53,665 bases of DNA, from contig BAAIJX010000091.1 of NCBI GenBank assembly GCA_054600435.1, positions 1 to 53,665 of the forward strand, given 5' to 3'. Of this stretch, positions 1 through 19,120 are shown piece after piece (positions within the stretch are counted from its first letter, which is position 1; each line of letters begins with the position of its first letter). A model generated the notes under the pieces. It worked only from the letters and a program-made list of their open reading frames with translations. It had not been told where the DNA came from and ran no database searches. The position numbers and the translations under genes are program-made. This DNA comes from Neophaeotheca triangularis (taxonomy: Eukaryota).

Positions 1-73
1 ATCAAAAAATCAACCCCCCCCCCCCCCCCCCCTCACCCAACCAGACCAACCCCAACTAACCTCCACCTACCAG

Positions 74-502
74 ATCCTCCGCAAAATCCGAACCACCCTC
101 TCCTCAGACCCATCAGCCTGCTTCCTGCTCGAAGGCTACTCCCAAGGCGCCTCAGCCACGACCAACGCCCTCAATCAAATCAGCAGCACGGACGCAGCTT
201 TCGAGGCCGTCAAAGGCGTGTGGCTAATCGGTAACCCGCAGCACCGTCGCGGCCTCGACTGCAACATCGACACCAACGGCGGCACCACAACCCGCAACGT
301 CAACGGGCTTTCGGCCTTCCAAGGGCGTATTCCGGCAGAGTGGGTCGCCAAGACAAAGGACGTTTGTGCTTTTGGCGATGGGGTTTGTGATACTACCAAT
401 GGGTATGGGATTAATGCGGCTCATTTGAGTTATCCGAACAGTGCTAGCACGCAGAGGTTGGGTACGCAATTTGGGGTTGCTGCTTTGACTGGGGGGAATT
501 AG
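74..502 (+). CDS. Cutinase / acetylxylan esterase (CE5) family, last exon; 5' part lies outside the window
   Basis: After ctaac...cag (acceptor at 71-73) the frame reads ILRKIRTTLSSDPSACFLLEGYSQGA...GNP...DVCAFGDGVCD...AAHLSY. This gives the GYSQG nucleophile motif and the C-x3-D-x2-C and His motifs of CE5. Stop TAG at 500-502. Confidence 0.85.
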   Translation: MLRKIRTTLSSDPSACFLLEGYSQGASATTNALNQISSTDAAFEAVKGVWLIGNPQHRRGLDCNIDTNGGTTTRNVNGLSAFQGRIPAEWVAKTKDVCAFGDGVCDTTNGYGINAAHLSYPNSASTQRLGTQFGVAALTGGN

Positions 503-988
503 GACTAGAGCTTGAAGGGGGATGGGGTGAGGCTGGCGGTCCAACGGATCGATGGTGTTTACAGTATCAATATTCTTTCTTTTTAGCTCTGAGATCTTCT
601 TGTTTGATCGAGAGGATTGTGATTTGATGTTAGTAGGTGTAACTCTTCTTTTGTAAGCGAGAAGAAAATGAAACTGTTTCCGGTCGTTTAGGATGTTTGT
701 CGAGATTATCAAACGACCTTCTGGCCGGAGTTTCGAGTGAACGTTCTGGATCTATTCCCTGTCTGTAATCTTATACGGTCCCGGAGAGAAAAATAACTGT
801 CTTCGTCGACGAGCATCCAGGCACTTAAGATCGACAACAACGCTTAAAGACACAGAACTGTCCCAATTTGCCCACTAAACGGCACGAAACGATTCTTAGG
901 TATTCGACTGGATATCACTGCGCAGGTAAAGAGCCATCACATCGTCCCCAAAGCATCCCCCCATCCCATCACCAACATCTCCCCCTCT

Positions 989-1860
989 CTACTTCTTCCC
1001 CAACTCGGCCTCAATAGCCCCCTTCAACGCCTCGGGCTTGGTAGAGCTCGCCCACCTCTGCTTGACATGCCCATCCCTCCCAACCAAGAACTTTTCGAAA
1101 TTCCACTTGACCCTCTGCAAACCCAACATGCCTGGCTTCTCTCCCTTCATGAATTCCCACACGGGCTCGGCGTCGGCGCCGTTGACCTTGGTCTGCGCGA
1201 GGATCGGGAAGCTGACGCCGTAGTTTTTCATGCAAAAGGCTTGCGAGGCTTCGTTGGTGGCTTCCTCTTGATTCATGAATTGCGCGCAGGGGAAACCGAG
1301 GAATTCTACGTCGGAGGGATAGGAGGCTTTGAGGTCTGTTGGGTGGGGGGGAAAGGGAAGGTTAATCAGAGGCTGTCTGTGGGGTTTTCGGGGTGTCGGT
1401 GGAGTGTGGATGGGTGGGTTGGGGCCTTACCTTTGTACAGCTTTTCCAGCCCCTCAAATTGGGGCGTGAAGCCGCATTTGCTGGCCGTGTTGACTACGAG
1501 GACGACTTTGCCCTTGAGCTGCGAGAGCGGGAAGGGCTCGCCTTTGCTGTCGCGCTTTTCCCAGTCGGCGGCCGATTCGCCTTGTTTCTTGGTCGCGGTC
1601 TTTTTGACTTCAAAGTCGAAGAAGGAGGCTGCTGAGGACATGGTTGCGAAGTGGTGGGTGCTGCTACTGGTGGTAGTACTGGTGGTGATGCTAGGGGTGC
1701 TACGGTGTAGATGTGGGAGGAAAGATGGAGCAGCGATGAGGTATCGTCGTGGTTGTGACGACGGTGGGAAGCAGCTTCTTCTTATTGGAGCAGTAGTGGT
1801 GGTACTCGTAACCCTCGGGATTACAAATGACTGAACAGGCCGACCGAGTCGCAGTGACAT
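989..1860 (-). CDS. Glutathione peroxidase (thioredoxin-dependent Gpx3/Hyr1 type); exons 1860 (or 1641)-1431 and 1335-989
   Basis: Motifs [29 protein letters not shown] and [14 protein letters not shown]. Intron 1430-1336 (GTAAGG...AACAG) joins the two ORFs in frame. ATG 1641 gives the canonical [10 protein letters not shown] start; ATG 1860 adds an Arg/Ser/Thr-rich leader. Confidence 0.93.
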
Positions 1861-3536
1861 GGGGCGATAAGTGATCCTTCACCTCGTGATAGCTTCGGGT
1901 GCTGTGACTGAAAGAGGAATCCTGGCCGTGGACGGTGTACGCGAACCATGTAGTCTGTGAGGCGAGGCGAAGCATGTGATGAATAATACAAAGCTACCTC
2001 TTCCAAGGTTCTTCTACCCTTGCACAACTGCCCCTCTTTGCCCGGAACTTGCACAATCCGCGTCACAAAACATCCGATGGTGGGGCCAACCATGAGGCGA
2101 CAGAAGTGTCACAGAACTCGCTTTCGGGGGAAGCTCCGACTACATCCATGTTTGCCATGGATACCTCCAACCTCACCTCCTCACTACTCCATTCACTCTC
2201 CCTTGCCGAAACATCACGTGATGATTGCCCCCAAAGCACACACACTGAAGCACACAGCAGCAATCCTACTCGCTTCCCCAAAACGCCATCCATACTGCTG
2301 TGCTTCATCCCCCAACAGATGCCGCGTGGGAGAAAGCCCAGCAAAAAGCCAACCGCGTATACAAATCAACCAGGCAGAGGTATCGTGTCTCGCATGTTCA
2401 CGACAGGCGACTACCGTCAGCCCAGCTGGGATGCTACGACCAGCTCGGTCAGATAGCATCAGCATGAAAATCAGCCAAGAACCGATCAATCCAGCACGAG
2501 ACAAACTTGAAGAGCGACGAGCAGCCCTCACAAGACCTTCAAGACTGGCGAAAACTTTTGGATTTGGAATCGCGGTGACAAAGCGGCGATCCAATGAGCG
2601 AAATGAAGCAACGGCAGCATTGTGGGGGAAAAAAAGAAAAAAGGGCTCAATCAACTATACTGTTACTAACCCAAATCTATATACCATCAACGCTGCTCAT
2701 CCGCACACACACACACACATAAGTTTCATCATTTCGCTATTCTCGTCCTCAATCGTGAAGCATCATCATCATCTATTTCCATCAGTAACATGGAATCGAA
2801 CAGACAAGGTCAAACCTGGTCACGCACACTTCCTTCGTATCTTGCACAATACTGCCGGAAGCCGGCAGAATATTCCGGGCAATGCAAGGCCAAGGGCCAA
2901 ACGTTTCCAATGGTCTTCTTGGCTATAGCGATGGCTATGACCATCCTCATCAGGGAATTGGGGAGCTCGGGCAATTCCAGACTTTCGGCCGGGGTGGCGC
3001 AGGAGAACCAATTGACGACAGTGGAAAGTTGGAGAGGGCTCATCTCCTGGATGCTTCCATGACAAGAAATGACATGTCCGGGAAACGCAAAGCCGTTCCC
3101 GCTCGGTTTTCTTGTAGACACCTGGCAATGCGCATGCAACTACAGCAACCTCTCCCAGCTGACATGTCCCTAGATGTTGGATTTGGCTCCTGCATCCAAT
3201 GGGCTTCCAAACTCCACGGCTGGTCCATCATGCGTGCTCCCTCAACAGCATCTTGGGCAAATCATTTCCTGGCAGTCCATAACGGAAGATCGAAGTATGG
3301 CAGTATCCAGGGCAACGGCAATGGCACTATCCAAAGTATGAGCTCCCGCACTTTCTTCGTCGGGGGTTGTTTCGCAGATCTCCTACCTTGTGCACCAAGC
3401 GATCAGCATTTCAGCCTTTCTTGACCCAATGCGAAGATTTTTGCAGCCCCGCGATATTCCTGCGGCTTGAGTTCTGCGGGCTGACATCGTTGTCCGGGCC
3501 CTGGAGACCCTCCATCTTCCCGGGCACGAGATTGCT

Positions 3537-5521
3537 CTAGCTGTTCCACTGAGAAATGGCAGTCCCCCGGCGATGCTGGTCCTGGCGTCCCGACACCTGT
3601 TGGAAATGCACAGGAGACTGCTGATATTGGGATTGTACCTGGGCCTGGGAGCAGTTCCCCTGGTCCGGAAAGGGCATCATCGCCTGTGCCGCCTGCACCA
3701 CGGTCCTCTGGCGGTGCGCTGCTGGCTCGACGGACGCCGAGACGGTTGCCTTCCTTTTGCGCCCGCCTGCCTTCTTCTCCATCGATGTCGCATCCGGGCT
3801 GCCTGTGGACGGAGTGGGCTCCTCCTTGTGGTCATGGACACGCTTCATGTGGTCAAACAAATTGTACCTCCTTGGGAATCCATTCCGGGGCACGGCACGT
3901 TCGCAACCGGGGTAGTAGCACAAATGCGGGCGGTCTCCATGGCCATGCATTCCGTGAGCTTCTCGCTCGTGTCTGAGGAGGCACGCGGTGGAGGAGAATT
4001 CCTGCTTGGAGCAGGACTCGATCTTGCACCGGAATGGCTTCAGATGGGAGTCAATGAACTTGCTGTTAGTGTAGTGGTGGTTAGTACGTGGTGACTCGAA
4101 TGGCAGCTGAAGGTGGGTAGGCGCGTACTCGTAGTTGCACTTCAGTTTGGTTGGCTTGTGCTGGCACTTCTCCGGTTCATCCTTCCATGGGCAGTAGAAC
4201 AATCCATCCGAGGACGGCCCCTTGCTGTACAGTGGATGGTTCCTGTAACGACCTTCGTCGATGTCACTGGAGACGCTGGCCGTGACAATAGGACCGGAGG
4301 CCTTGGGTACACGCTCTGCCCGATACCCGAACCCAGTGGGCTCAACATCAACGAGCGAATCCAGGGCATCATGTGAGGTGTTTCCAGCTCCTTTTGCGTC
4401 CGGGTGACTGGACTTTGGGTTAGTGATGTTGAGGTGATCATGGGCATGCTGATGATCTGACCTCGAAGCCGTGGGAGATAGGGGTTGTTCTTCCGGGTCA
4501 AACTGGATAAAAGCGCTGAAGTCCTCTGCAGTGGAATCATACACGGTCTCGGCGGAAGAGTCTGATCTTGCAAAGGCCTGTGCGGGCGTCCGGGCAGAGA
4601 GCTGGTATCCTTGTGACACGGACAAACGGTTTTCCGTGATCTGGGGTTGGATTGGCCTGTAATGGGTGATGTCCCTTGGCTGGGCAGCCGTGCTACTTAC
4701 GCTTGGGGCATAGCTCGAATAGCCTGACGTATGAGGCAAGAGCATCCGCTGTGGCGCAGTACCAGCCGGGTGGCTAGAACCAGCAGGGCCTTCAGTCCTT
4801 GGTAAAAGAGGCCTTTGGTAAACTACAGGTTGCCGGGCAAAAGTTATCCTCTGGAAGGGCATCCCTTGAGGGCATGGAGCTTGAAGCACGGGCGCTCCGT
4901 ATGGGACATCCTGGGTTGTATTCCATGATGGTTGATACGTGTGAGATTGATCCGCCTGGCTATGCGGGGCTTGGGAAGAAACGCTGGACGTCCCGGATAG
5001 CGGCTGCTGGAATCCTTGTGGGGCGTATGATCCGGCGGCCTGTGTTTGTGGCCAAACTGAACCTGCAGTGGAGAAAGAAAAGTCTGGTCCGGCAGAATTC
5101 AATGGAAGATCCGACTCGGATGAGTTGAGGGTGTGCGGGCTACGGCTCTCATAGCTTAGGACTGGCGAGAGCCCTAGGTCTACAGAGGATCCATGGGTGG
5201 GCATGTTCAGCCAATTCATGGAACCCATGGCACATGGGTCCAAGGCAGACTCATGAGCCCACCAACTTCCTTCGTACGGCTGCGTCATAGCGCTGTGGTC
5301 CGGCAGGCTTGTTGGCCAATCCTCGGCCATTGAGGACTGGCTCCATTGTTGGGTCATCATGTCCGGGCAGTCCGACGGGGCAAACTCCGAAACGGTATCA
5401 GGGGGCGACAGCGGAAGATCCACTCCAAAAGGGACGGACTGGTTCCAAAGGGCCACTTCGGAATGCTTGGATGAGAAAGAAGATGCTAGGTGGCAGTGGG
5501 AATATTCCTCACTGTCGACAT
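3537..5521 (-). CDS. C2H2 zinc-finger transcription factor; exons 5521-5513, 5465-4462, 4407-4129, 4062-3537
   Basis: Fingers CPWKDEPEKC...H, CKIESC...LLRHEREAH and CYYPGC...LFDHMKRVH, plus a basic NLS (GGRKRK). Introns: 5512-5466 (GTGAGG..AAG, after ATG TCG ACA), 4461-4408 (GTCAGA..ACTAAC..CAG) and 4128-4063 (GTACGC..ACTAACAG). Removing the last restores CNYDKFIDSHLKPF. Confidence 0.88.
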
Positions 5522-7899
5522 AAGTCAGTTTCCACCACCTTGACGTGATATTGGAAGCATTCCAAAAAGCAAAGCACGAAACAAAGAAAACAAAACGATG
5601 TAACGGAGCTTTGACCTTGAGCGTCCGAACCAGGTACGGGGCAGCAGTGGCATTCCTGTGGCACAGGGTCTTGCGAGGGCCAGCGAGTCCTTGGCTTCAG
5701 GGTCATCTAGGGAGCCATCCGTGGACGGTATGTTGTATTGCTGGCCTGTCAACGGCGAAGAGTCCGGACGACGGAAGAGAATCCGGTGAAAGGTAGGTCT
5801 GCCATAAAGGCATGTCCTTGGTAGTTTCAAGTGAGAAAAGATACATCAGCCCGTCCTGGTTTTAATGGATTGCCCGAGTGATATTGTCCAGTCAGTCTTC
5901 GGCATGCCCGGTTGGGATTGAAAAAACCACGAAAGGCAAGGAAAATCCAATGGCAATAATCCGACGGCATTCGTCCTAGGGTGGAGATCCGACAGGGAAT
6001 CGAAGCGAGGAGCTCAGGTAGCTTCCGAAGAGCAGCATGCACATATCTCATGCGTCTTGCAAGAAGCACCAACCATCGAATGACTCGCTACAAAATCCAT
6101 CCTGGGAAAATTGGGAGACCGGCATTGATCCATGGCGTCTGTTCTCCGTGCGGCATGCACCGATCCTTGGGGCGTAGCAGTAATGGTCATGAAAGAGCAA
6201 GAAAAGTCAAAAACAACGCAAACTCCGTGGCAGGCAAGCCAAAGCAATAAACAAGACAACATGGTGAAAGTAATACCTGACGGCCGAAATCTCGTCGGGG
6301 CTGCGATCTGTCATCCTGGTCTGTGTCCGGAGCAAGTGAATCCTCTCCAAGTGGCAGATGGGGCGAAAATGGTCAACCCGGGGTCGGGCAGCGCAGAGGA
6401 CAAAAAGCAAAACGCAAGAACAGTAACAAAAGCCAAATGGTTCTGTAGTCCTCGGAACTGTCGAGATGATGCTTGATCCTAGGTAGCAAGCGGGTAGTGA
6501 ATGGTGGTAGCAGTAGCAGAAAGTGAAGTTGGGCAGAAACAGTAACTTGGTAGCAGGTCGAGTGGAGGAAAAAGGACGGAGGGAGTTGTGGTGGCAGCAG
6601 CTCGTTCATATGTTGGGCAGCTGCTCAGAAAAGGTGCGGTGAGCAATCTACGCACAGCAGCTACGGGAAGCGCTTCCTTGAATCCTGCACTGGGCGGCCT
6701 GCAGGCTGTGGTGATTGACAGGGGGTGCGGAGCGTTGCCTGATTCGCTAGCCTCGTGACCGCCTTGCATAGCGACTCATCATTTGGCCGACGAGACGTCT
6801 TTTTGTGCTGCACTGCCGCAGTAGCGCAGTGACACGTCACAACCGTGACAGGTCTGCCAACCTGCTGCCGTGCATGCATCGTGCGATGGTGCTGACGGAA
6901 GCTCGACGAGTGTGTTGGTGGGGTGATGAAGGTGGTGGAAAAGAGGGCGAAGAGCGCGAAAGAGCGGGCGTAGGAGGAGGTGAGGCATGATGGGAGACGG
7001 TGGCATAGCTTCGGGTCTTGACTCTCGCAGACGTCGGGTCTTTAGCGACGGAGCTAGCCGGCGTGTTACAGGATTGCGCTGAATGGATATAGGCATCATC
7101 CCTGCTTGTTACGTCGGAAGCAGCCAGGTCGATCACGTGTCGATCTCAGCCTATCCCAGAGGAATAAGTGCAACTTGAAGAAGTCGACCCGGTCAACGGA
7201 GCGACCTCAGCAAGTAGACGACTATATCTTGGAGTAGAACTTCTCGTGTGGCTTTCGACCTGGCGTCCGGAAGGGTCTTTCCCGGCGCTGCATTGGGCGA
7301 CTGTCCTCCTACATGTGGAGGCGTGTGGAATGCGAGGTAGTAGAAGGTAGCAGGTAGGCGAGCGGTAGACTGATCAATAGTCGCGAATGAGCGAGACCAG
7401 GAGCCTGCGATTGCCCGTTTCTAGGTGTTGGGCGGCTTCATGTTCCACCTTGTTCCACCATGTTAAGGTTGCCTTTGTTTTAGTAGGCGTGATAAGACCT
7501 CTGTTTGCCCAATCACTGACCCTGTCCTTGAACTATTATTGTCGAGATACTGGTTAGACTGGTACTGCCAAGGTTGACTGTTATCTTATCTTGAGACGTC
7601 GCACTTCATACCGTAATCATGGCCGAGTCAACCTACCTAAGGTACCTTAGGGTGCGTTCGGTAGGTGTCCGTTTCGTGCTCCGTTTCGTCTCGGTTATTG
7701 CTCTATACGTACTATACATCTCGGTTATGCGGTTAAAAAGGCGGTATGCTACTCTTAGATGTGCTAAGCTCTTACTTCAACTTCATATAGTAGTGCTATT
7801 AGTAGTATAGGTACTAAGGTTAGTTATTATATTACTTTTTTAAGGTAGTTATAGAGCCTTAGATCGATCCGTAGTTGCTCGGCTTACCGTAGAGCAATA

Positions 7900-8274
7900 G
7901 CCTGTCTTCGACACTAATTAGTAGCTAGTCGTTACTAGCAAATAATAACTAAAGTCCTTCCCCTTTAAGAGCGCCTTAGTCACTATTACCGTTACTAGTA
8001 ACTTAAGTAAAGCATATAACATAGTCTCGGATTATAGAGGGTATTACAATTAAGGAGCTTATTAAGTAGCTCTATACTAGTAATAGAGCTTAAAGTAGAT
8101 AGAAGAAGGAGGCCTAGTAGGCCGTTACTAATACTATTTATCTAGTAACTCCGGAGTAGTAACGGCACCTTATTAGTGTCTTAACTATATAGAACAAGTT
8201 TAATACTATAAAGAAGGAGTATAAGGTATAGGCATAGATAGTAGACTAGTCCGGTTAGTTAATTAATAGTAAAG
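7900..8274 (+). pseudogene. Harbinger Myb/SANT-like DNA-binding ORF, 5' half (start approximate)
   Basis: Reads T*SRIIEG...SNRA*SR*KKEA**AV...I*NKFNTIKKEYKV*A*IVD*SG*. Reverting RIP gives W...G.R..GWKKEAW...QNKF...KKEYKVW...SGW, the Myb_DNA-bind_3 pattern. Ends at the TAAAG TSD. Confidence 0.72.
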
Positions 8275-8497
8275 TGTAAGACTAAGACTATGACTCGGTC
8301 GGGATCACGGTATAGCGAGGGCGGAGCGTAATAATAGTAATAATAGTAACAGTCCTTTAATATAGAAACTATTCGATAGTAGATAGGAGACTTCACTGTT
8401 AGCTATCTCATATACTTTCGTAGTGTGTATACTTAGTACTCCCGAGCTACTCCGTAGCTTAGGCTACTAATGTCCCGCTAGCGCCGCGGTCGTGACA
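8275..8497 (-). repeat. 3' LTR (223 bp)
   Basis: TGTAAG...CGTGACA. Aligns without gaps to 15815-16037, with 15 transition differences by my count. Confidence 0.96.
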
Positions 8498-9212
8498 ATT
8501 GCCTCCCTCTCTAGTAGCTCGTCCTCGAGCAAGCATTCATAAGCGTAGCTATACGAGACCCCGTTATAGCGTATACATTAGTATCCTCGTTAAAAACCTC
8601 GGTAGTGTCCCTACTAAGGAAAAGAGCGATACCGCGTACCGCTATCGTACCGTTAGGTCCCTAGAGTAAATTCACCCTAAACCTAAGTTCGCTACGGCGA
8701 GGTGCGTTATCGTCGCGATAAGCGGTATTAATGGCCATGTAGTAGTGATCTAGTAGAGCGGTAATTGCCGGTAGAGCCTTAGCGTAATTACGCTATAATT
8801 ATGTAGAGGTAACCTGCCGGTCGCTTCTCTTTCGAAGACTTCCTCCTTTTAACTATAATAACAACAATAGCCTCTACTCCGTCATAGTCCCTTCGGCGTA
8901 CTAGTCTACCTTTTAATAAGGTGACCTTCTTTGTCGGTAAGTGAACTTTAGTTCTTTATGTACGCGCTACCGTCGGTCCGTATATAGTTCCTATTGTTCT
9001 TCGACAATGAAACTAACCTCACCTAGTTTCCTATTATTACCTACTTCCGGTAACCTTTCGAAAACCTTACCTAGCGCGGTTTAACAAAAAGGCGCTCCTC
9101 GTACCTCCGATACCTTCTTTCCTTCTTTATCGACCACTTTTTCCGCGATCTCGCTATCGCCCTTTTTCGCCAGCTTTATTCACTACCTTCATTACTCCGC
9201 CGCCGTTCTATC

Positions 9213-10555
9213 ATGCCTCCGCGTGTTAGCAAGCGTCCGAAGGCGCTAGTCGACTATAGCGTTAGCGCTATAGCCGTTAATAGTAAGGGTGCCTTTATTA
9301 TAGATAGGGCGATTGTTACTAAGGGAGTCTTTATGACTAAGGGCTGCCGTCGGATCGCTACTAGCAGCTTTATAGAGGAGGAGTTAAAGGATCTAGTTAA
9401 CGAGTCGAAGTCTACTAAGAAGGGTTTAAAGTCGGAGGGTGTTAGTACGAAGCGCGCTGCGGCCGTTAAGGGTATAGGCTCGAAACGTAAGCGTGCTAAG
9501 GGTAATGATAGTAAGGAGAGTAGGTCTAATAAGGGTACGCCGGCGTTCCGTCGCTTTGCTAACATCGATAAGGGTAAGGAGCTTACTCCTATCGATGTTA
9601 ATCGCCCTCGTTATTCGCGCTACATTAAGGAGCTCTTAAGTAACGTTCTCGCTAGCTCCGTCGACTTCGTCCCGCTATGTAAGATAGTGCCTTCCGCGAC
9701 CGGATCGGTATATAATACCTACTTTAACGCGAAGCAATCATGTATCGAGGTAAGCCTACCGTAGCTCTATCGTCGTTACGAGTTTTACTAACGTCTCTTT
9801 AGATCATTCCTAACCTCGCTAGCTAGCGCCTCTACTATGTCTAGATGAACTATACGGCTATACTCTATCGCGCTAACTATGCCGGTAGTTCTAACGCCGA
9901 TTCGCCGATATACCTTAAGGTCTTAGAAGTTAACGCTAAGGTCTCCTAGTACTTCTATAAGAATAACTACGCCGTTATCCTAATAGGGGGCCTTCGTCGT
10001 TCCGGTCCTAACAACGATAAGATCTTGACTCCGCACGACATAGCACGCCTAATCACGGATCAAACTCGCGACTTCGCTACGATTGTTACTAATACTGTCG
10101 AGAGACTTGTCGCCGTCTACCGCACGGAAATGTCTATGCTTATTAATAAGATGTCTAGCCGCCGTTACGCCGCGCCTTCTTCTTCGCTAGTACGCGATAC
10201 GCCTAGTGTTAATACGTCGCCGCCTTACGACGAGACCGTTAGTACGCCGGCGCTAGTAGTGGCTCCTAAGGTACTAGTAGTAGAGACTAAGGGTCTAGTT
10301 CGGAAGAGTAGTAGGGGCGACGCCGGTACGCCGCTAGAGGTGTCTTCTAGGGAAAGCTCTTCTTTATCGTCGGAGTTAGATAAGGAGGATAAGGCTCCGA
10401 AGAAGCCTTCTAGTATCTTAGGTTTCCTTAAGATACGCCGTAGGGACGACGCCGCTCCGTTAGCGGGAGAGAATACGGAGAAGTCTATTAGTGCCGAAGA
10501 TTAGCTATAGGCTAATATTGCTAATGTTACGAAGGAGTTAGACACTAGGGCTTAA
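9213..10555 (+). pseudogene. Additional antisense gene inside the retrotransposon; exons 9213-9749 and 9803-~10555; putative six-Cys Zn-binding nuclear protein
   Basis: ATG at 9213. Intron 9750-9802 (GTAAGC..TACTAAC..TAG) puts ORF 9213 in frame with ORF 10025-10504; the intervening stops are all TAG. A second intron-like unit lies upstream at 8937-9026 (GTAAGT..ACTAAC..TAG). Confidence 0.75.
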
Positions 10556-10649
10556 GCGTTTATCTAATCATTTACGTACTCTCTATAAGCGCTATTATCC
10601 CGTCGCTAGCCCGTCCGTAGTAGCTGTTAATTAAGAAGCTTATGTACTA

Positions 10650-13600
10650 CGTCCTTTTCCTATAGTTTTCTTCTTTTTCCCTAGCTATGTATTCTCGACA
10701 TTCCTTTTCTTTAGGCTTTATGTTTTCTTTCTACGCTTCTTCTTTACGCTACCGTAGGTCCGCTAGTGTTACTCGAAGTCTGCGATCGCTTCTTTTGCGT
10801 TGTTTAGATGCTTCTCTTTCTCCTAGGTTCCCTCTTCTATCGGCTAATCTCTCTAAAGAACATAGTACGTCTTGTTACCGTCGTCGAGACTAGATGCCGT
10901 TATTTCATCGACAACCTATTTATCGCCTCTGTCGACTTCTCGCTCCGCTAGTAGTACGAAGTTAGCGCGTCGGTAGTACGGTTCGAGAAGAGAGACGTAG
11001 AAGACGTTATAGATCTTTCTAAGGTATAGAGGTAGGGCTAATCGGTATGCTTGTTTTCCGACCCTTACTACGATTCGGAAGGGCCCTACATAACGCGAGG
11101 AGTACTTTTTAGTTAGTCTTAACGTTTTCAGGTTTTTCGTAGAAATAAGAACCTCGTTATCGACACTAAATACTATAGGATCGTGTTTTCGGTCGTAGTA
11201 TTCTGCCTACTTGCCGACGGCATACCGAATGTTCTCCTCGATAACTTCGCGAATTGCTTTCTAGTTTTCGGTTCTTTCTTAGAGGTCGGGGATTGTCGGT
11301 TCGCTACCTCCCTCTCTAACGGCGTTGTCCGTAACGCCGCCGGGCCGTTAGGGCTCTACCCTATAGACGGTAAAGAACGGCGACACTCTAGTCGATACGC
11401 TTACGCTATTATTATGGGCGAATTCAGCCTATACAAGGTAATAAGGCTAATCTGTTTATGTAAAGTTAACAAAACATCGTAGATACTATTCTATTGTTTA
11501 GTTTTGCCTCTCTATCTACCCGTTAGACTAAGGGTAGTATGCCGTCGATAACTTGCGCTCGGTTTTCTAATACCGAAGGAGCTCTATCTAAAACGCGGAG
11601 GTGAACATACTGCCTCTATTAGTTACAATCGATTTTGGCTTACTAAACTTTATAAGAATTTCGTGCTCGAAAATATCGGCTAGCTAGCGGGCCCCTATCG
11701 CTTCGCTAATAGGGATGTACCTCGCAAACTTTAAGAAGTAGTTAATAATAACTAACATAGAATCGACTGTTTTACCCTTATATGTCTCTACGACAGGCAA
11801 CTTAACTACTATGTCTATAGACTAATGCTAGAAGATCTCATTAGTACCTAGAACCCTTAGCGATTATAATGCGCCGTAGGGCTAGTAGTAGCGCGACTTA
11901 TGTCTTTAGTAGGTATTACACCTAAGGACATACTCTTCGACATCCTTAGTCTACTTAGACCACCAAAACTCCTTATGGAAAACGGCTTTAGTCTTCCCTA
12001 CTCCCGGGTATCCTACTAATAGGTCCTCGTAGTAGTAGCTTAGCATGGCGGCCCGTAGGCTTTCTACCGGCGGCATATACACCTTTCCATTAATCTTAAG
12101 AAGTCCCGTAAAACTAACCGACTATATAGGCGCGGCGCTGTCGGCGTCTCTATAGTACTATCCCTCGTCGATCTCTTTACGAATACGTTTAGTAAAGGGG
12201 TCTCCCTACTATACGCGTAACATATCCGCTCTAAGGTCGATTCGGTCTACCGCTACATTAGGCTCTCTAATGTCTAGCTCGGTAATAGCGAGTATACCTA
12301 GCTACTTACCTATAGGGTTATAATAGGTTAGCGCTACTATAGCGATAGAGCTAGTCAGGTTTAGTTTACCTCCCCCTTAGAGCGTTCGCTTAGTATACAT
12401 AGTATCATTACTCTAAAGCTTATTGTTTAGAGGACCGGTGTCTCTAGTAGCTATTATGTGGCCCGCTAGCGAGGCGGCTAACGCCCGGTAGTTTACTAGC
12501 ACTATATACCCCGGCGATATAGATAGGATCTCTACTCTATCTTCGGCGGCCGTCGTGTAGCTACTCGCCGGAACTTCGGCAGCCTTATAGGGGCCTACCG
12601 GGGGAGCGAAAAGCCTAGTTAGTGTAGGTAGCATTTCCGCCCTACTTAATTCTCTATTAGCCTCTATGTTAGGACGGCGCGAGAGCCCGTCTACTCTAGG
12701 GTTTAATTTACCTTCACGGTATATAATCTCGATGTCGTATTGCGATAGCTCTTCCGCGGCGCGCGCTTAGCGGCCTAACAATTTCTTTGTCGATAGGAAG
12801 TACTTTAGATTGTTATAATCTATAAGCACCTAAACTTTACTCTTAGCCGACAATATATAGTGCTACTATTAGCGCGTCGCCTCGACGATAGCGAGTAGTT
12901 CCTAATCATACACTAGATATCGTAACTCCGGCCCTTTAAGCTTCTTAGAGTAATATGCGACTAGATACTATAGCATGTCCGAGTGCTTCTACGCGAGTAT
13001 GCCTCCTAATACATATCCTGATATATCGGTCTTAAGGCGGGTCTCTAGTATAGCGTCAAAGTGCCGTAGCACTAGTACTAAAATGAAGCTGTGCTTTAAC
13101 CTTTTAAAGGATTTTTAGACATCTTTACCTAGTGGCTACCATTTACCGCCGCTATACCGTAGGCGGTCCGTAAGGGGAGCGGTAATCTTTATATACCCCT
13201 CGATAAAGCGACGATAGAAATTCGCGAATCCTAGGAACACTTAGAGTTCTTTTAGGGACTTTAGTATTAGCTAATCTTATACTATGGCTACCTATAGGGG
13301 CTCTATCGCTACTCCGGTAGAGTTAATAACGAAACTAAGGAATCTAATCTCTCGGACTATGAACTCGCATTTCTCGAGACTAGTATACAGCTTAGCGTCG
13401 GCGAGCCGACAGCAGACTGCTCGAACGTGTTCGTAGTGTTCTAATTTAGTACGGGAGTAGATAAGAACATTATCTATGTATACTACGTAGCAATAGTCAA
13501 CTAGCTCTATGAGAACCTTATTAATAAAGGCCTAGAACGACGCCAGTACATTAGTGAGTCCGAAAGGCATAACCTTATATTAAAAATGGCCGTACTAATA

Positions 13601-14580
13601 GCGGAACGCCGTCTTCTACTCGTCGCCCCGGGCGATGCATAAACAGTAGTATGCCTCGACTAAATCGATTTTCGAAAACCACGTTAATCTGCGGACTCTA
13701 TCTAAGAGTTCACTAATAAGCGGTAAAGGGTACTTATTCTTAATAGTAATATCGTTTAAGCCGCGGTAATCGACGTACATACGAAGTTTGCCGTTTTTCT
13801 TCTTAACGAATAGTAACGGTACGCTGGCGGGGCTAGTACTAGGCTTAATGCGGTCCGTTACGAGTAGGTTGTTAATCTACGACTACATTTCTTCGAGCTC
13901 TAGCTCGGAACATGGATAGATTAGTCTACTAGGAGGGTTTTTTCCCTCGACTAGTTCGACATAGTAGTCGTGAAGTGTATATAGAGGTAACTCTTTCGCC
14001 TTCTCCGATTTAAACACCCCGGCGTATTCCGCTAACTACTCGGGTACCTACGGCTCCGCTAGGGTCCCGCGTAGGTCTTCTACGCTAACGGCGAGGATAG
14101 ATACTCTACCGTTAATATCTCGGGCTAGTTCTTCGGCCTCGATGATTTCGACTTCTTCTTTGTTATACACACTGCTATAGCGCCACTACACTAGTAGCGA
14201 CGCGAAGTTAAGCTATACTTTCGCGGATCGGATCTAAGGCATTCTAAGAATCATTTCGTAATCCTTCTAGTTCACTACTTCGAACATCTATAGGATGGTT
14301 TGAACTATACTGTCTAAATTAGCGACTTTAGTATAGAGTCGACATTAGCCTACTATTAGGGCTTCGACGTCGCTAAAGGCTCGTAGCCTACGAATCCGGT
14401 CACCCTTTATCGGTAGGTCATACTAGACCGCAATGTCTTCCGAGATAACATTGTAATACGCTCCTATATCGATAAGCCCGCGGGCCTTAAAGCGTAGCCC
14501 GTCGCGGGTACGATCGCATATCTTTACGACAGCCTATAGGCGCTCCGTTAACGTACTACCTACTTACCGCCCTAAGCCCT
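10650..14580 (-). pseudogene. pol (protease, RT, RNase H, integrase, chromodomain), RIP-degenerate (ends approximate)
   Basis: GLIDIGA (protease DTGA, ~14470); LRMYVDYRGLN, VMPFGLTN and YVVYIDNVLIYS (RT YxDD, ~13470); LKTDISGYVLGGIL (RNase H); RYVGPFRI...AYRLALP...YNVFYVSLLEP (integrase GPF/Y); *VVDEI...YYVL*RD*PIEEGT*EKEKHL (chromodomain, ~10770-10925). Confidence 0.93.
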
Positions 14581-14589
14581 TAAGGCTAA

Positions 14590-15765
14590 CAATTAAATGA
14601 CCTAGGGCTAAGCTTTTCCCTTTCAGCAATTTTCTTACTAGTGGCCTTTATTACCGCACTTAAAACAAAGGTTTTCTTCGAGGGCTTTGTTGTTTCGTTC
14701 GCTACTATAGGTCGTACCTATGCGGTTTATACTAGTTGCCGGTGTTCTATCGGTACGCTAGTAGCGCGGTTTAGAGTTGTTGTCGCTTATACTCTAGCTT
14801 TATTCTCGTTTCTTATAGCCGAACCCTCTTAAGTCAGTCTTACGTAGCCTGTCCGCCGTCTCGCCTCTAGCGTCCCGGGCGCTATAGCTAGTATCGTCGA
14901 GGCGCGTGTAAAGCGCGACGAGGTTATACTAGTTGTCCGGTACCGTCAGCTAAGCATTTAGCTTAGCCTTAAGATTTTCCTATAGACCCGTCTTAACGAG
15001 GGTAAGGAGCGTATACTCCGGTAGTAGGGCGACGTTAGCCTCGCGGAGGGAGTCTTCGACATGCGAGAGGTAGTCGTGAATAGATTAGGTCGCTCCCTAA
15101 ACATGTCTAAAACCTCGGAACGCTATATTTATAGCGCGGTTTTCGGGGTCGAGGATCTAATCTAGTAGCTATTCTTTAAACATAGGCTATTTCATCTCTT
15201 TACGTTCGAGTCGTGATTCTTTACTCTCCTAGTTCTAGCCGACGCGGCCGTATAGGCGGCCCGCGGCATACTAGACACGCTCGTACTAATAAAAGTAAAC
15301 ATAAGGGTACGTCTTAAACACACGCTCGCATTACTAGATAAATGTCTATGTTTTCGGGAGGTTAGGATAACTCCTATAAACTATTAGTTCGGCTAAGCGA
15401 AAAGCTTTCTCGATATCGATGTAAGACTTTCGCTCCTTTATCGTTACGCTAGCGGGTAGATCTTCGTCTACCGTCTACTTACGTGCTACTAGGGTAGGGG
15501 TAATGTCCGCCGGGTCCTCCGGTTCGATATATCCTCTTTCGGACTCGTCGCGGGGGACTGTCGCTCTATCGGCGGCTCGCTAAACAGGCGCTATATACTC
15601 TACTAATTGCTATCGGAGTTCCGTAATAGCAGTAGTAAGGACCGTGTATTAGTCCGTCGCCGCCTCTTCTTGTTCTTATAGGGTGTTAACTCCGGTTATA
15701 GTGTTAGGGGAGTCTACTAGGTTAGCGTCGTTAACCCGAGGGCGTAGCGAGCGCGATAGTGCTAT
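14590..15765 (-). pseudogene. gag of the chromovirus (RIP-degenerate, ends approximate)
   Basis: Lies between the PBS and the protease. Likely start ATA(<ATG) GCA CTA TCG CGC at ~15765. Many TAG/TAA stops in RIP context. Confidence 0.65.
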
Positions 15766-15802
15766 GATGTCCGAGCGAATCTTAACCTAAAAAGGTTCTA
15801 AG

Positions 15803-15811
15803 ATCGAATAG
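15803..15811 (-). promoter_or_regulatory. Self-priming (Tf1/sushi-type) primer binding site
   Basis: Minus-strand CTATTCGAT, 3 nt inside the 5' LTR boundary, is the reverse complement of minus-strand ATCGAATAG inside the LTR (15909-15917). No TGG-type tRNA PBS is seen. Confidence 0.7.
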
Positions 15812-15814
15812 AAT

Positions 15815-16037
15815 TGTAAGACCGAGACTATGACTCGGTTAGGATCACGGCATAGCGAGGGCGGAGCGTAATAATGGTAATAATAGTAATAGTCCTTTAA
15901 TATAGAAACTATTCGATAGTAGACAGGAGACTTCACTATTAGCTATCTCATATACTTTCGTAGTATGTATGCTTAGTACTCCCGAGCTACTCCGTAGCTT
16001 AGGCCGCCGATGTCCCGCTAGCGCCGCGGTCGTGACA
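15815..16037 (-). repeat. 5' LTR (223 bp)
   Basis: Direct repeat of 8275-8497; lies upstream of gag on the minus strand. Confidence 0.96.
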
Positions 16038-16042
16038 TAAAG

Positions 16043-16720
16043 GCCTTCCTTATATAGATCTAGACTCTATAGACGCCTATTTTAAAGCATATACCGAGGC
16101 CGAGAAGTACCGCTATAAGCCGCTCTTTATATAGTAGGAGTTAGGCCTCCTATATAAGGACGTTATAGCTACTAGTAAGTATGTTTTAAGTACTCCTAGG
16201 GGTAGGGGTAACTAGAGTCGGTTAGTCTCTTTAGAGAGTCTTTCGTAAGTAGATTTACTAGTAGAGGGTAGTATACTAGTAGCCGATAAAGTAGAGGACG
16301 TCTAACGGTCTTTACTAGCCGTAAACCTACGAAAATTAGCTATTAATAATAATAAGAAGAGTCGTAAACAGGCGGTTAAAGAGGGTACTATAAGGCTTAC
16401 TAAGGCCGTCGATAGACAGACCGCTATACTATTAGAGTTACTAGTAATTTAGAAGGTTAGCGTACTCCTATAGAGTAATAGGTTTACGTAGATTCCGCTC
16501 ATTCTACATAGTAAGGCGGCCTATTACTTCTCGACTAATAATCTAGCGTATATGTTTATCGCTACTCTATACGAGGCTTAATTGTAGTTTATAAAGGAGG
16601 TTATTAGTAGTTAGGAGGTTAAAGAAGGTCGTGCAGTAGGGGAAGAGGATAAGGTTATCGAAATTAAGGGTACCTTAGGTAATAATGAGCTCGAGTTCTA
16701 GATAGCGCTCCCTAATAGTT
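16043..16720 (+). pseudogene. Harbinger Myb/SANT-like ORF, 3' half (end approximate)
   Basis: Continues in frame after removing the retrotransposon and one TSD: ...GLP...AYF.A..EAEKYR.KPL...ELGLLY.DV.AT(S/G)KY, the typical C-terminal part of the domain. Multiple RIP-type stops. Confidence 0.65.
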
Positions 16721-16899
16721 ACTTTTCTAAGTTATATAGTAAATTATATAATAAGATAGAACCTTAGCATCTTTTGCTACTCTCTATTACTCCTACTATC
16801 TATACTAATAAGGTTATATAGTTATATAACCTTTAACTTCCCCTAGCTATCTTATACTCTAACCTCTCTTTCTTAACACCTTAATATAATCTAACTATA

Positions 16900-18100
16900 T
16901 CTCGTTCGTTATATCCTTCCTTAGGCCTACTACCTCTACGTTTATTAAAATAGGCGCAATATTATTACTACTACCTATACCGCTCCCTACCTCTCTCGCT
17001 AGAGCCTCCTCTAGCTCCTCCTTATCGCTACCGAGATTAGTTAAAAAATTATAGAGAGCCGCTAGAGCGTAGATTAGCTTTACCTATGTCGATATTAGGA
17101 ACTACGGAGTAGTCTAAAGGATATAGAAGCGTTATTTAAAGACTCTAAAGGTACGCTTAACTACATTACGTATAATAGAGTGTCGTAGGTTAAATAGCTC
17201 CTTAGGGGTCGAAGGCTATAGACTAACCTCTTCTACCTTATAGAGGTAGTACCGTATACCGCGATATAGTACTAGAGTTATATTAGTATTAGTATAACTA
17301 GCGTCTATAAGGTAGTATTTACTAGGGGGATAGGTAAGGCTATAGTCTCTTACTATAGAGGCTAAAACACAACCGTTATAAGCTAACCCTTCCTATCGAG
17401 GTAAGACGAAGGTAAATCGCCTATTAAAGTCGATAACAGCTAATACATTTTACGATAGGAACCCCTTCTTATTACGCTATAGAGCTTACTCTTAACTAGT
17501 AACATAAGTAAAGATATAAGAGCTATTAAGAGCACTAACTATATCCTTAAACTATAGCTAATATATACCTCCGCGATCGAATACCTCCTAGCTAGATTGC
17601 TCGTGATTTGCCGCGTTAAGAACGAGCTCCTAGTATAGATCTACTACTACATGTAGTACCTTATAGAACACCTTAGATATCGTAGAACTAGAGTATTAGA
17701 AGGTCTCTTAGTAGTCCCTAATATAGCTACCTTATACATACTAATGTAAGAAGAGGAGGAGCTCCTTATCTATACTAATAAGACGTCCGTTAGTAAGAGG
17801 TAATAACAAGAGTAGCTTATCGAACTAAGTAATAGTGAAGCGCGTAAATCGCTTTATGCGGACGTCCGATCCTCGTAACTTAACTACCTTTTGCTAGCTA
17901 GTAGTAGCTTAGAGATATACACTCCTTAGGCTAGTAGGCACAATATTAGTATAAGCTCTAAGATCTATATAGGCAATTACTACACTAATACGCGTGTTCT
18001 GCTACGCGAGCTGTTTATATAGTAATAGTCCTTAGTATGAAGCTATATTAAAAAGCTATATTACGTACTAAGACGAAACGTCCTCCTACGAAAAGTACCT
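16900..18100 (-). pseudogene. Harbinger (HARBI1-like, DDE_Tnp_4) transposase, RIP-degenerate (ends approximate)
   Basis: Minus-strand relics: ETF*YSSSTISKVF; FKDIVSALNSSYI (=FKDCVGALDGSHI); *NVLAVIDFN.RFTFVLP.*EG.AYNG (=WEGSAHD); PPSKYYLIDASY (=PPGKYYLVDAGY); YRGIRYYL; KELFNLRHS..RNVVKRTFRVFK*RF. Confidence 0.88.
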
Positions 18101-19120
18101 CTTCTCGTAGAGGTAGTAGAAGGCAGCTCCGTCTACAGATTTTGACTATGTAACTACCTAACTAAACTATAACAGGAAGGAGGTACCTTTTAACCGAGAC
18201 GGACGCGCTAAGCTCCGTTTCGTAACCTTAAAACGCTATTTCAACCGAACACCCCTCCGTCTTAACCTCCGTTTCACTGCCAAGGCTCCGTTTCGACGAA
18301 ACGGAACGGACAATTCAGTGCGAACCGAACGCACCCTTAGGTACCAACGTGGCCGAGTTCACGTCTCCAGGTCCACTACAGTCGTAATCATGCCCCTCGA
18401 CGTGCCGAGACTGCCGACTGACTGCCGACTGATGACTCCCGTCTCTCCTCTACGTGTCTTCCAATTAACATTTGTCCTCCAGCGTCGTCGTCCCTTGGCA
18501 TAATTGAACCCCCTTTCCGTGCACCTCCCTCTTCTTCTTGTTATTATCTACCGCTTAACGTTCAAATCATCCGCTCTCGTCGACAACCTACAGTACCTAA
18601 GCTCACGATTGACTCGTGCTGCGTCGTGCACTTGGCTACTACTAACCTGCGTCTCCCCTTGGAATGGCAAATACTTGACTTCCCTTAACTTAGCCTTGGT
18701 GACAGCAGAACATTCCAACTTCCCACCCTCCTCCCGCTCTCAAAACTGCCCGGGCAGACCACCGTCTCAATAATATTAATAACAATGTCCCTGCTCCTCC
18801 GCCCAACACGTGCATCGTTTGACTTTGGCACTTCTCGCGCGCGACGTGGCAGGAGAATTCTTGGCCTCTCAGTAGTGTCGATTAGCGCATGTTGGAGATG
18901 CGCGTCGCTGCTTGACGGCGAATTGAGCCCCATCTCCTTTGTCTTGTCGCTTCAATGCTTCTCACCATCATCTTCAATCATAACTACTTGATACAAGTGG
19001 CCTCTCGCCGATTGTAAACCACCGGCGGGTTTGCATCCCCTTTCCCATACCCAATGCTTCTTTCAACGCACTAATCTTTTACCCCCTTACCCTCTCCCGA
19101 TATTCTTCGAGCACCCCCCC

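Follow-up and report, generated by a model that had tools for sequence, protein, structure and literature searches.

Genes that run antisense and sit between pol and the 3' long terminal repeat (LTR) are a described class of additional open reading frames (ORFs) in LTR retrotransposons. The available portions of two papers (PMC7264820, PMC11963269) name, as plant ORFs of the aORF-3R type, gene23 of maize Grande, whose product is nuclear and which has its own promoter, together with those of rice RIRE2, of Silene Retand, which has a TRP28 domain, and of PvRetro13; the same portions describe HBZ of human T-cell leukemia virus type 1 (HTLV-1), whose 3' LTR contains an antisense promoter and whose product localizes to the nucleus. 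The fungal example, in the accessible text of PMC8365987, PMC4227169, PMC5987419 and PMC7264820, is brtn, found in the Boty-like chromoviruses of Botrytis and Sclerotinia. Here we analyze a contig of 53,665 nucleotides (nt) from Neophaeotheca triangularis (BAAIJX010000091.1; hereafter the window, on which all coordinates are given), in which a Ty3/gypsy chromovirus that is complete but was killed by repeat-induced point mutation (RIP) harbors an extra gene at this position. We consider it likely that a fourth gene belongs to this chromovirus family, placed between pol and the 3' LTR on the opposite strand and bearing an intron. To our knowledge, none of the antisense accessory genes of LTR retrotransposons has an established function; in fungi, brtn was reportedly presented by Zhao et al. 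2011 (Virology 417:248) as an additional antisense gene of the Boty-like chromoviruses of Botrytis cinerea.

The extra sequence between the pol stop codon (10718-10720, minus strand) and the 3' LTR comprises 2,220 bases (8498-10717) and holds a plus-strand gene, antisense to gag-pol (Table 1). An initial annotation, made from the letters of the stretch alone, had recognized a pol that ends in a chromodomain and is followed by such a gene, and both points were confirmed; the size it gave for the extra sequence, about 2.1 kb, is corrected to 2.2 kb. With a coding sequence at 9213-10504 on the plus strand and an LTR that ends at 8497, the gene has the position and orientation of an aORF-3R. It lies within an AT-enriched block (7401-18500) bearing the dinucleotide signature of RIP (TA/AT of 1.6-2.2 and (CA+TG)/(AC+GT) of 0.26-0.48, as compared with 0.56-0.74 and 1.15-1.34 in the gene-bearing flanks). 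The two longest open frames of this whole block are stretches of 229 codons (9075-9761, first ATG at 9213) and 184 codons (9950-10501), which occur in different frames within the extra sequence. In 1000 first-order Markov simulations of the RIP region, from which we took the chance levels of both ORF length and intron-like motifs, the 99th percentile of ORF length was 139 codons and the maximum 203, showing that these ORFs are not due to chance.

Removal of positions 9750-9802 brings the ORF at 9213-9749 in frame with that at 9950-10504, as the initial annotation had proposed for a second intron of the gene; the joined frame keeps three TAG codons (9824, 9842 and 9947, all between 9803 and 9949). 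At all three positions another copy of the gene, P0003, encodes Gln, identifying the stops as CAG-to-TAG products of RIP. The gene is dead in the window copy, broken only by RIP point mutations. Its predicted product comprises about 412 residues, of which the first 128 are rich in Lys, Ser, Gly and Ala and contain the stretch SKRKRAK; a Tyr-rich core follows, and the tail is rich in Ser and Pro. The N-terminal third would be basic, disordered and equipped with a nuclear localization signal (NLS), and a long helix is predicted with low confidence at exon-2 residues 77-118. Inside exon 1 we also noted a 41-nt imperfect palindrome (9560-9600) that is 83% self-complementary.

Copies of the gene were compared at the protein level between the window (exon 1, P0001), P0003 (283 residues, from a 1483-bp contig) and P0004 (156 residues, from a 4151-bp contig), and contigs of individual sequencing runs were aligned to positions 8200-11300, divided into 30 bins. 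These contigs covered 30 of the 30 bins in run X1, which may stem from the source sample, 29 in run X2, which bears another organism label, and 24 in run X3, an air metagenome; a further run, X4, had no contig matching this interval. One X3 contig (record 18) spans 10383-10972 and runs from the 3' end of the gene through the spacer into the chromodomain, so that a second copy shares the arrangement. The region is therefore not missing from other copies, an outcome that the initial annotation had named as one that would speak against its proposal, and, judged by the contig coverage of X1, X2 and X3, the gene resembles an aORF-3R also in its presence across family copies. An independent nested insertion, the other such outcome, was considered and rejected: no terminal repeats and no second target duplication bound 8498-10717, and the region is present in other copies. 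The antisense gene belongs integrally to the element and recurs in many of its copies, which come from more than one organism.

Relative to exon 1 of the window, P0003 is 85% and P0004 81% identical, and the differences are unevenly distributed. Within the core (residues 129-156) the window and P0004 differ at one of 28 positions (Ser148 vs Arg), and P0003 and P0004 differ solely at residue 156, which is Tyr in P0003; the N-terminal 128 residues diverge far more, the copies differing at about 19% of positions outside the core. The basic stretch SKRKRAK is conserved, reading SKHKRAK and SKRKRAM in the two remaining copies. Among the indels listed, those in the coding part are a +3 (9884), a -3 (10365) and a compensating -1/+1 pair (9675/9677), akin to the +3 in the pol chromodomain (three variants at 10875-10880), and the leader carries -1 indels at 9061 and 9138; the lone uncompensated indel in the gene span (9213-10504) whose length is not a multiple of three is a +1 at 9782, within the proposed coding intron. 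The reading frame was thus maintained while the family diversified.

These patterns bear on the possibility that the gene is a passenger, i.e., a fragment of a host gene captured once in antisense orientation and without a role for the element. Gene transduction by LTR elements is known, as the available part of PMC7264820 indicates, and the introns are of host type while the product has no similarity to transposon proteins. We nevertheless regard a passenger as unlikely: no host parent or other relative was found for exon 1 among 1.84 billion representatives, and the region, whose indels preserve the frame and whose core is conserved, occurs under two organism labels and in an air metagenome. 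According to the same partial source (PMC7264820), such features mark conserved extra ORFs rather than one-off captures.

Several observations weigh against a fourth, intron-bearing gene of the chromovirus family. None of the five runs listed for the stretch is recorded as RNA, and transcription and splicing are predictions from the DNA; all three copies seen as protein are incomplete (that of the window is interrupted by three stops, and the sequences of P0003 and P0004 extend to residues 283 and 156, respectively). Searching exon 1 with phmmer against the 1.84 billion representatives gave a single match, the family copy P0004, and word-index searches, confined for exon 2 to proteins of 128-408 residues, returned only P0003 and P0004, with none among longer proteins. 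No Pfam family matched at E up to 10 when P0001, P0002, P0003, P0004 and two short pieces were searched, and the AlphaFold2 models had mean predicted local distance difference test values of 36.9 (P0003, with a four-row alignment) and 36.6 (exon 2), both unusable. In addition, the leader intron depends on motifs of chance frequency, and P0003 has a 54-nt version of the coding intron that can be read through in frame.

The best match of a sequence search of the PDB was ribosomal protein eS21 (E 0.13), which we judged to be due to chance. Among clusters of the ESM Atlas, exon 1 scored best (0.90) with an Ascomycota cluster of 50 members and 156 residues, probably the same family, and exon 2 matched bacterial and viral clusters at the 0.85 level only. 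A protein-based scan of JGI metagenome contigs yielded 595 pattern matches, none of which was confirmed, and a 20-nt exact anchor found six loci there, all GC-rich chance matches without further similarity.

The initial annotation had assigned two canonical introns to the gene, one in the leader and one in the coding sequence, and motifs of this kind are present at both places. Scoring the pattern GTRAGY..RCTRAY..YAG on both strands of the RIP block gave 5 occurrences, as compared with 5.3 +/- 2.5 in the simulations (about 0.23 per kb by chance), so that splice motifs alone prove nothing. The coding intron draws its support from elsewhere: by an arithmetic estimate, the chance of a motif occurring exactly at the ORF junction with a frame-restoring length is roughly 0.005-0.01, and P0003 matches the window protein on either side of it. 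It is very likely, judging from these sequence features, that the coding intron is real and of the spliceosomal type.

The competing explanation is that no coding intron exists and that the ancestral ORF was continuous, with 54 nt at 9750-9802, the window copy, like most others, being a dead gene frameshifted by a 1-nt deletion. P0003, which reads through the 54-nt version without meeting a stop, is consistent with this, as is the occurrence of the +1 form in X3 and in three X1 contigs, where it accounts for a depth of 391 of 1786; it is absent from X2. However, most of the X1 depth (about 1395 of 1786) belongs to the 53-nt form, which is also the sole one in X2, textbook GTAAGC, TACTAAC and YAG elements stand exactly at the frame-restoring points, and the one uncompensated indel described above falls there, as expected for a non-coding stretch. 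A continuous ancestral ORF is in our view quite unlikely.

Support for the leader intron is weaker, and we lean only slightly toward the candidate being real. It contains the sole two ATGs (8958 and 9007) between 8802 and 9212, and the probability of a leader otherwise free of ATGs is 0.08. No upstream coding exon was found across it: the ATGs at 8731, 8737 and 8801 are all out of phase with 9027.

If the gene is a working part of the chromovirus, it would be transcribed inward, either from its own promoter, located in the approximately 440 bases that separate the polypurine tract from the leader intron, or from the 3' LTR acting in antisense. Splicing of the transcript would follow, with the leader intron possibly taking out the two upstream ATGs, and then translation into the protein of about 412 residues, which would be imported into the nucleus. 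Because the gene is antisense, its introns would go unrecognized in the genomic RNA and survive reverse transcription, staying in that RNA and being copied at every retrotransposition; antisense-intron reporter cassettes for retrotransposition use the same principle, and the reasoning of the initial annotation on this point was sound. By analogy, a nuclear accessory role of the product is most likely: it could act as a factor modulating the expression or silencing of the element, in line with proposals made for Boty brtn and for the antisense extra ORFs of plants.

The antisense RNA might also pair with the last 2 kb (the 3' part) of the genomic RNA, and an effect on silencing could coexist with a role of the protein. 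That the RNA is itself the effective product, pairing with the genomic RNA and feeding or tuning RNA silencing, is an idea raised for antisense extra ORFs of plant elements in the accessible portion of PMC7264820, and full complementarity is expected between the transcript and the 3' 2 kb of the genomic RNA. Since ORF length, indels in multiples of three and the conserved core indicate selection on a protein, we find it very unlikely as the main account, although the two roles are not exclusive.

The extent of RIP in each copy matters for reading the protein sequence. The extra region (8498-10717) has a TA/AT of 2.12 and a (CA+TG)/(AC+GT) of 0.31, comparable to the remaining element, and about 70% of the CpA/TpG sites have been lost from the window coding sequence (147 TA vs 43 CA+TG). 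Transitions predominate among the X1 copies (527 of 572 variable places), as RIP predicts. Of comparable sites, P0003 shows RIP changes at 10 of 21 and at 6 of 14. P0004 is nearly free of changes of the CpA/TpG type: it has a RIP-type change at one of 13 non-synonymous CpA/TpG sites retained by the window and the window's derived state at none of eight sites ancestral in both other copies (six of the CpA/TpG type; read by hand), i.e., hits at one of 21 informative sites overall. It also differs from the window by nine changes requiring transversions, marking it as a divergent lineage. We also observed that differences between copies are often CpG rather than CpA transitions (exon 1 codons 4, 17, 45, 82 and 128, among others), with 12 of 86 CpG sites changed in P0003 and 4 of 53 in P0004; either RIP in N. 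triangularis has a CpG component or deamination of methyl-cytosine contributes.

A last proposal concerns the nature of the protein. As the initial annotation described, SKRKRAK is followed by the spacing Y134-x2-Y137-x18-C156-x10-Y167-x2-Y170-x6-C177, and it took the product for a Zn2Cys6-like factor with six Cys, of which those at 134, 137, 167 and 170 had become Tyr by RIP. The four Tyr codons are indeed TAT or TAC, which is uninformative as a sign of RIP, as Tyr has no other codons. RIP-type changes can yield Tyr from His, from Cys or, in two steps, from Arg. Across the copies residue 156 is Cys in the window and P0004 and Tyr in P0003, and residue 177 is Cys in the window and Tyr in P0003, so that real Cys residues behave as RIP targets and changes from TGY to TAY do occur in the antisense gene; with the heavy loss of CpA/TpG sites from the window and the fit of Y167-x2-Y170-x6-C177 to a C-x2-C-x6-C half-site, this speaks for the proposal. 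So does a cluster at rank 14 of the ESM Atlas search, with a score of 0.76, in which 28% of the members have DUF3716, a domain that we take to be Cys-rich; this score is far below the level that counts, and we keep the link as a lead only. In the parts of the literature available to us, a Zymoseptoria DNA transposon carries genes for DUF3716 proteins as accessory genes (PMC8232023), and for one such protein orthology to a telomere-binding protein is reported (PMC10776026).

The copies themselves speak against this ancestry, decisively so for the first pair. Tyr134 and Tyr137 are Tyr in three of three copies, including the nearly RIP-free P0004, and Tyr167 and Tyr170 in two of two; Tyr instead of Cys in other copies is an outcome that the initial annotation had itself named as contradicting its proposal. 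Under Cys ancestry P0004 would need two independent RIP hits, at 134 and 137, for which the probability is about 0.002, or about 0.06 if the upper confidence bound of its RIP rate is taken, and a shared, already mutated ancestor is the sole escape for Cys at these positions. For 167 and 170, where the data are thinner, Tyr under Cys ancestry has a probability of roughly 0.1, and a smaller Cys motif may have existed there. At exon-2 codons 26 and 56, where P0003 has Arg, the window reads TAT and TAC, showing that Tyr has sources other than Cys; in a shuffle test of the core (16 Tyr/Cys residues), two pairs at i,i+3 are expected by chance (P = 0.41). The 40 of 687 variable places that are listed for the X1 contigs include none at the four Tyr codons, which carries no weight either way. 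The known Zn2Cys6 spacing is C-x2-C-x6-C-x5-12-C-x2-C-x6-8-C, which the region, with two Cys and a first-half spacing of 18, does not fit, and at E up to 10 neither Zn_clus nor DUF3716 (PF12511) nor a further Pfam family matched any version or piece. A six-Cys ancestor is highly improbable, and we do not regard the protein as a zinc cluster of this kind in disguise. More generally, restoring Cys from Tyr by eye when "de-RIPping" a sequence is unsafe, because every Tyr codon is TAY and codons for His, Cys and Arg can all end as Tyr.

Table 1. Features of the chromovirus and its antisense gene in the window.
Feature	Coordinates	Strand	Remarks
Target-site duplication TAAAG, left	8270..8274		Identical 5 bases at 16038-16042
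3' LTR	8275..8497	-	223 bp, TG..CA, 93% identity to 15815-16037; element sense is minus
Polypurine tract AGAGAGGGAGG	8498..8512	-	Adjoins the 3' LTR; putative role, from its position
Candidate leader (5' untranslated region) intron	8937..9026	+	GTAAGT..ACTAAC..TAG, 90 nt
Exon 1, coding part	9213..9749	+	ATG at 9213, 179 codons (P0001)
Basic NLS-like stretch SKRKRAK	9480..9500	+	Residues 90-96; predicted nuclear import
Most conserved core VNRPRYSRYIKELLSNVLA.SVDFVPLC	9597..9680	+	Residues 129-156; holds Tyr134, Tyr137 and Cys156
Tyr167, Tyr170, Cys177 (Y-x2-Y-x6-C)	9711..9743	+	Tyr at all three in P0003; P0004 ends earlier
Coding intron (proposed)	9750..9802	+	GTAAGC..TACTAAC..TAG, 53 nt, phase 0
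Exon 2, coding part	9803..10504	+	233 codons and stop; RIP-made TAG at 9824, 9842, 9947
gag-pol region	10718..15814	-	pol is a single frame of 1699 codons, interrupted by RIP stops alone
Chromodomain, pol C-terminus	10721..10915	-	Pfam Chromo, E 2e-4, profile positions 2-52 of 53
5' LTR	15815..16037	-	223 bp, TG..CA
Target-site duplication TAAAG, right	16038..16042		Matches the left copy

The host of the gene is a complete LTR retrotransposon of 7763 bp (8275-16037) with gag-pol on the minus strand. Its pol frame contains, by Pfam, RVT_1 (residues 670-829, E 2.8e-25), RT_RNaseH in the same frame (residues 924-1026, E 2.7e-20), Integrase_H2C2 (residues 1251-1308, E 2e-10) and SH3_Tf2-1 (residues 1555-1613, E 2.3e-15), and the rve integrase core gave no match there at E 0.001. 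The order reverse transcriptase, RNase H, integrase in one frame is that of a chromovirus. The terminal Chromo match scores 21.7 bits, under the curated cut-off of 25.1, with three RIP stops entered as X; these stops presumably coincide with Trp residues of the chromodomain consensus. A zinc knuckle of the CCHC type (CFKCGNKGH..ENC) was read by eye upstream, in a second frame (frame 2). The element is a Ty3/gypsy chromovirus, complete but RIP-killed, which was intact at insertion and later inactivated by point mutations alone.

The edge of the LTR is supported by X1 contigs in which four distinct flanks end at 8277. Some X1 contigs join the LTR start to inner points of the extra region (the places involved being 8275/8277, 10430 and 10592): one connects 10592 with 8275 by way of 11 intervening letters, and in one 8277 is joined to 10430 on opposite strands. 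These junctions look like element copies nested in each other. At 15797-15814 (minus strand), beside the 5' LTR, the expected primer-binding site is unlike the usual sequence, which starts with TGG and is complementary to a tRNA; it may have been altered by RIP, or the element may prime itself. No tRNA genes were found in the window.

The chromovirus landed in a DNA transposon that is older and RIP-mutated to an equal degree, found at 16038-18500 and probably also including 7401-8274. The 16038-18500 segment has a TA/AT of 2.18 and a (CA+TG)/(AC+GT) of 0.26, and its minus strand (16038-18499), read through stops, matches DDE_Tnp_4, a PIF/Harbinger-type transposase (E 2.3e-09). Ordinary fungal genes flank the RIP block (window 1-5456), including a cutinase fragment at 2-499 (E 1.7e-14), an intron-split glutathione peroxidase at 989-1857 on the minus strand, and an ORF of 638 residues with C2H2-like motifs seen by eye and no Pfam match at E 0.001.

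The layout described here is already known, and the window gene apparently represents a new, sequence-unrelated case of it. The initial annotation limited canonical fungal chromoviruses to gag and pol, a premise that was too strong, as it overlooks Boty brtn, which the accessible text of two papers describes (PMC8365987, PMC7264820). Our literature search turned up no fungal case besides Boty, and a survey of fungal LTR retrotransposons (PMC3248453) contains no occurrence of the word "antisense"; the fungal record of antisense accessory genes is essentially that of brtn. With a second fungal family that is unrelated in sequence and has a well-supported intron, the layout would be seen to recur in ascomycete chromoviruses. 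Such a family would also offer a further handle on the role of such genes, in regulation of the element, nuclear import or interplay with silencing. Beyond this, we tentatively suggest, as a possibility that we rate below even, that these genes form an undescribed family of intron-bearing antisense genes of ascomycete chromoviruses, sequence-unrelated to brtn, with a product whose conserved Tyr-rich core and NLS would make it an HBZ-like nuclear regulator of element transcription or host silencing; in that case fungal LTR elements would have gained antisense accessory genes repeatedly.

Among known systems brtn is the closest, being, as far as the available descriptions go, likewise an extra antisense gene between pol and the 3' LTR of an ascomycete Ty3/gypsy chromovirus, with a product that has no known domain; in the database searches, exon 1 and exon 2 of the window gene matched copies of their own family only and gave no indication of homology to brtn. 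The plant aORF-3R genes share the position and orientation, and their ORFs are found in most copies of a family, with Grande the model that we adopted; unlike the N. triangularis element, the plant elements, in the portions of text available, belong to non-chromovirus lineages and have much longer regions between pol and LTR (2.9-6.6 kb in Retand), and the TRP28 domain of Retand is absent from the N. triangularis gene product, which had no Pfam match. To a Zn2Cys6 or DUF3716 protein the product would be similar in one half-site (Y167-x2-Y170-x6-C177) if the Tyr residues were Cys, but it has two Cys only, has Tyr at 134 and 137 in a nearly un-RIPped copy and matches no Pfam family. HBZ of HTLV-1 is also an antisense gene beside the 3' LTR with a nuclear product, a location that is predicted here. 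HBZ is spliced and encodes a bZIP protein; it belongs to an exogenous vertebrate retrovirus, whereas neither bZIP nor any other domain was detected in the product of the window gene. The resemblance to HBZ, drawn by analogy, concerns a possible mode of action and not family membership.

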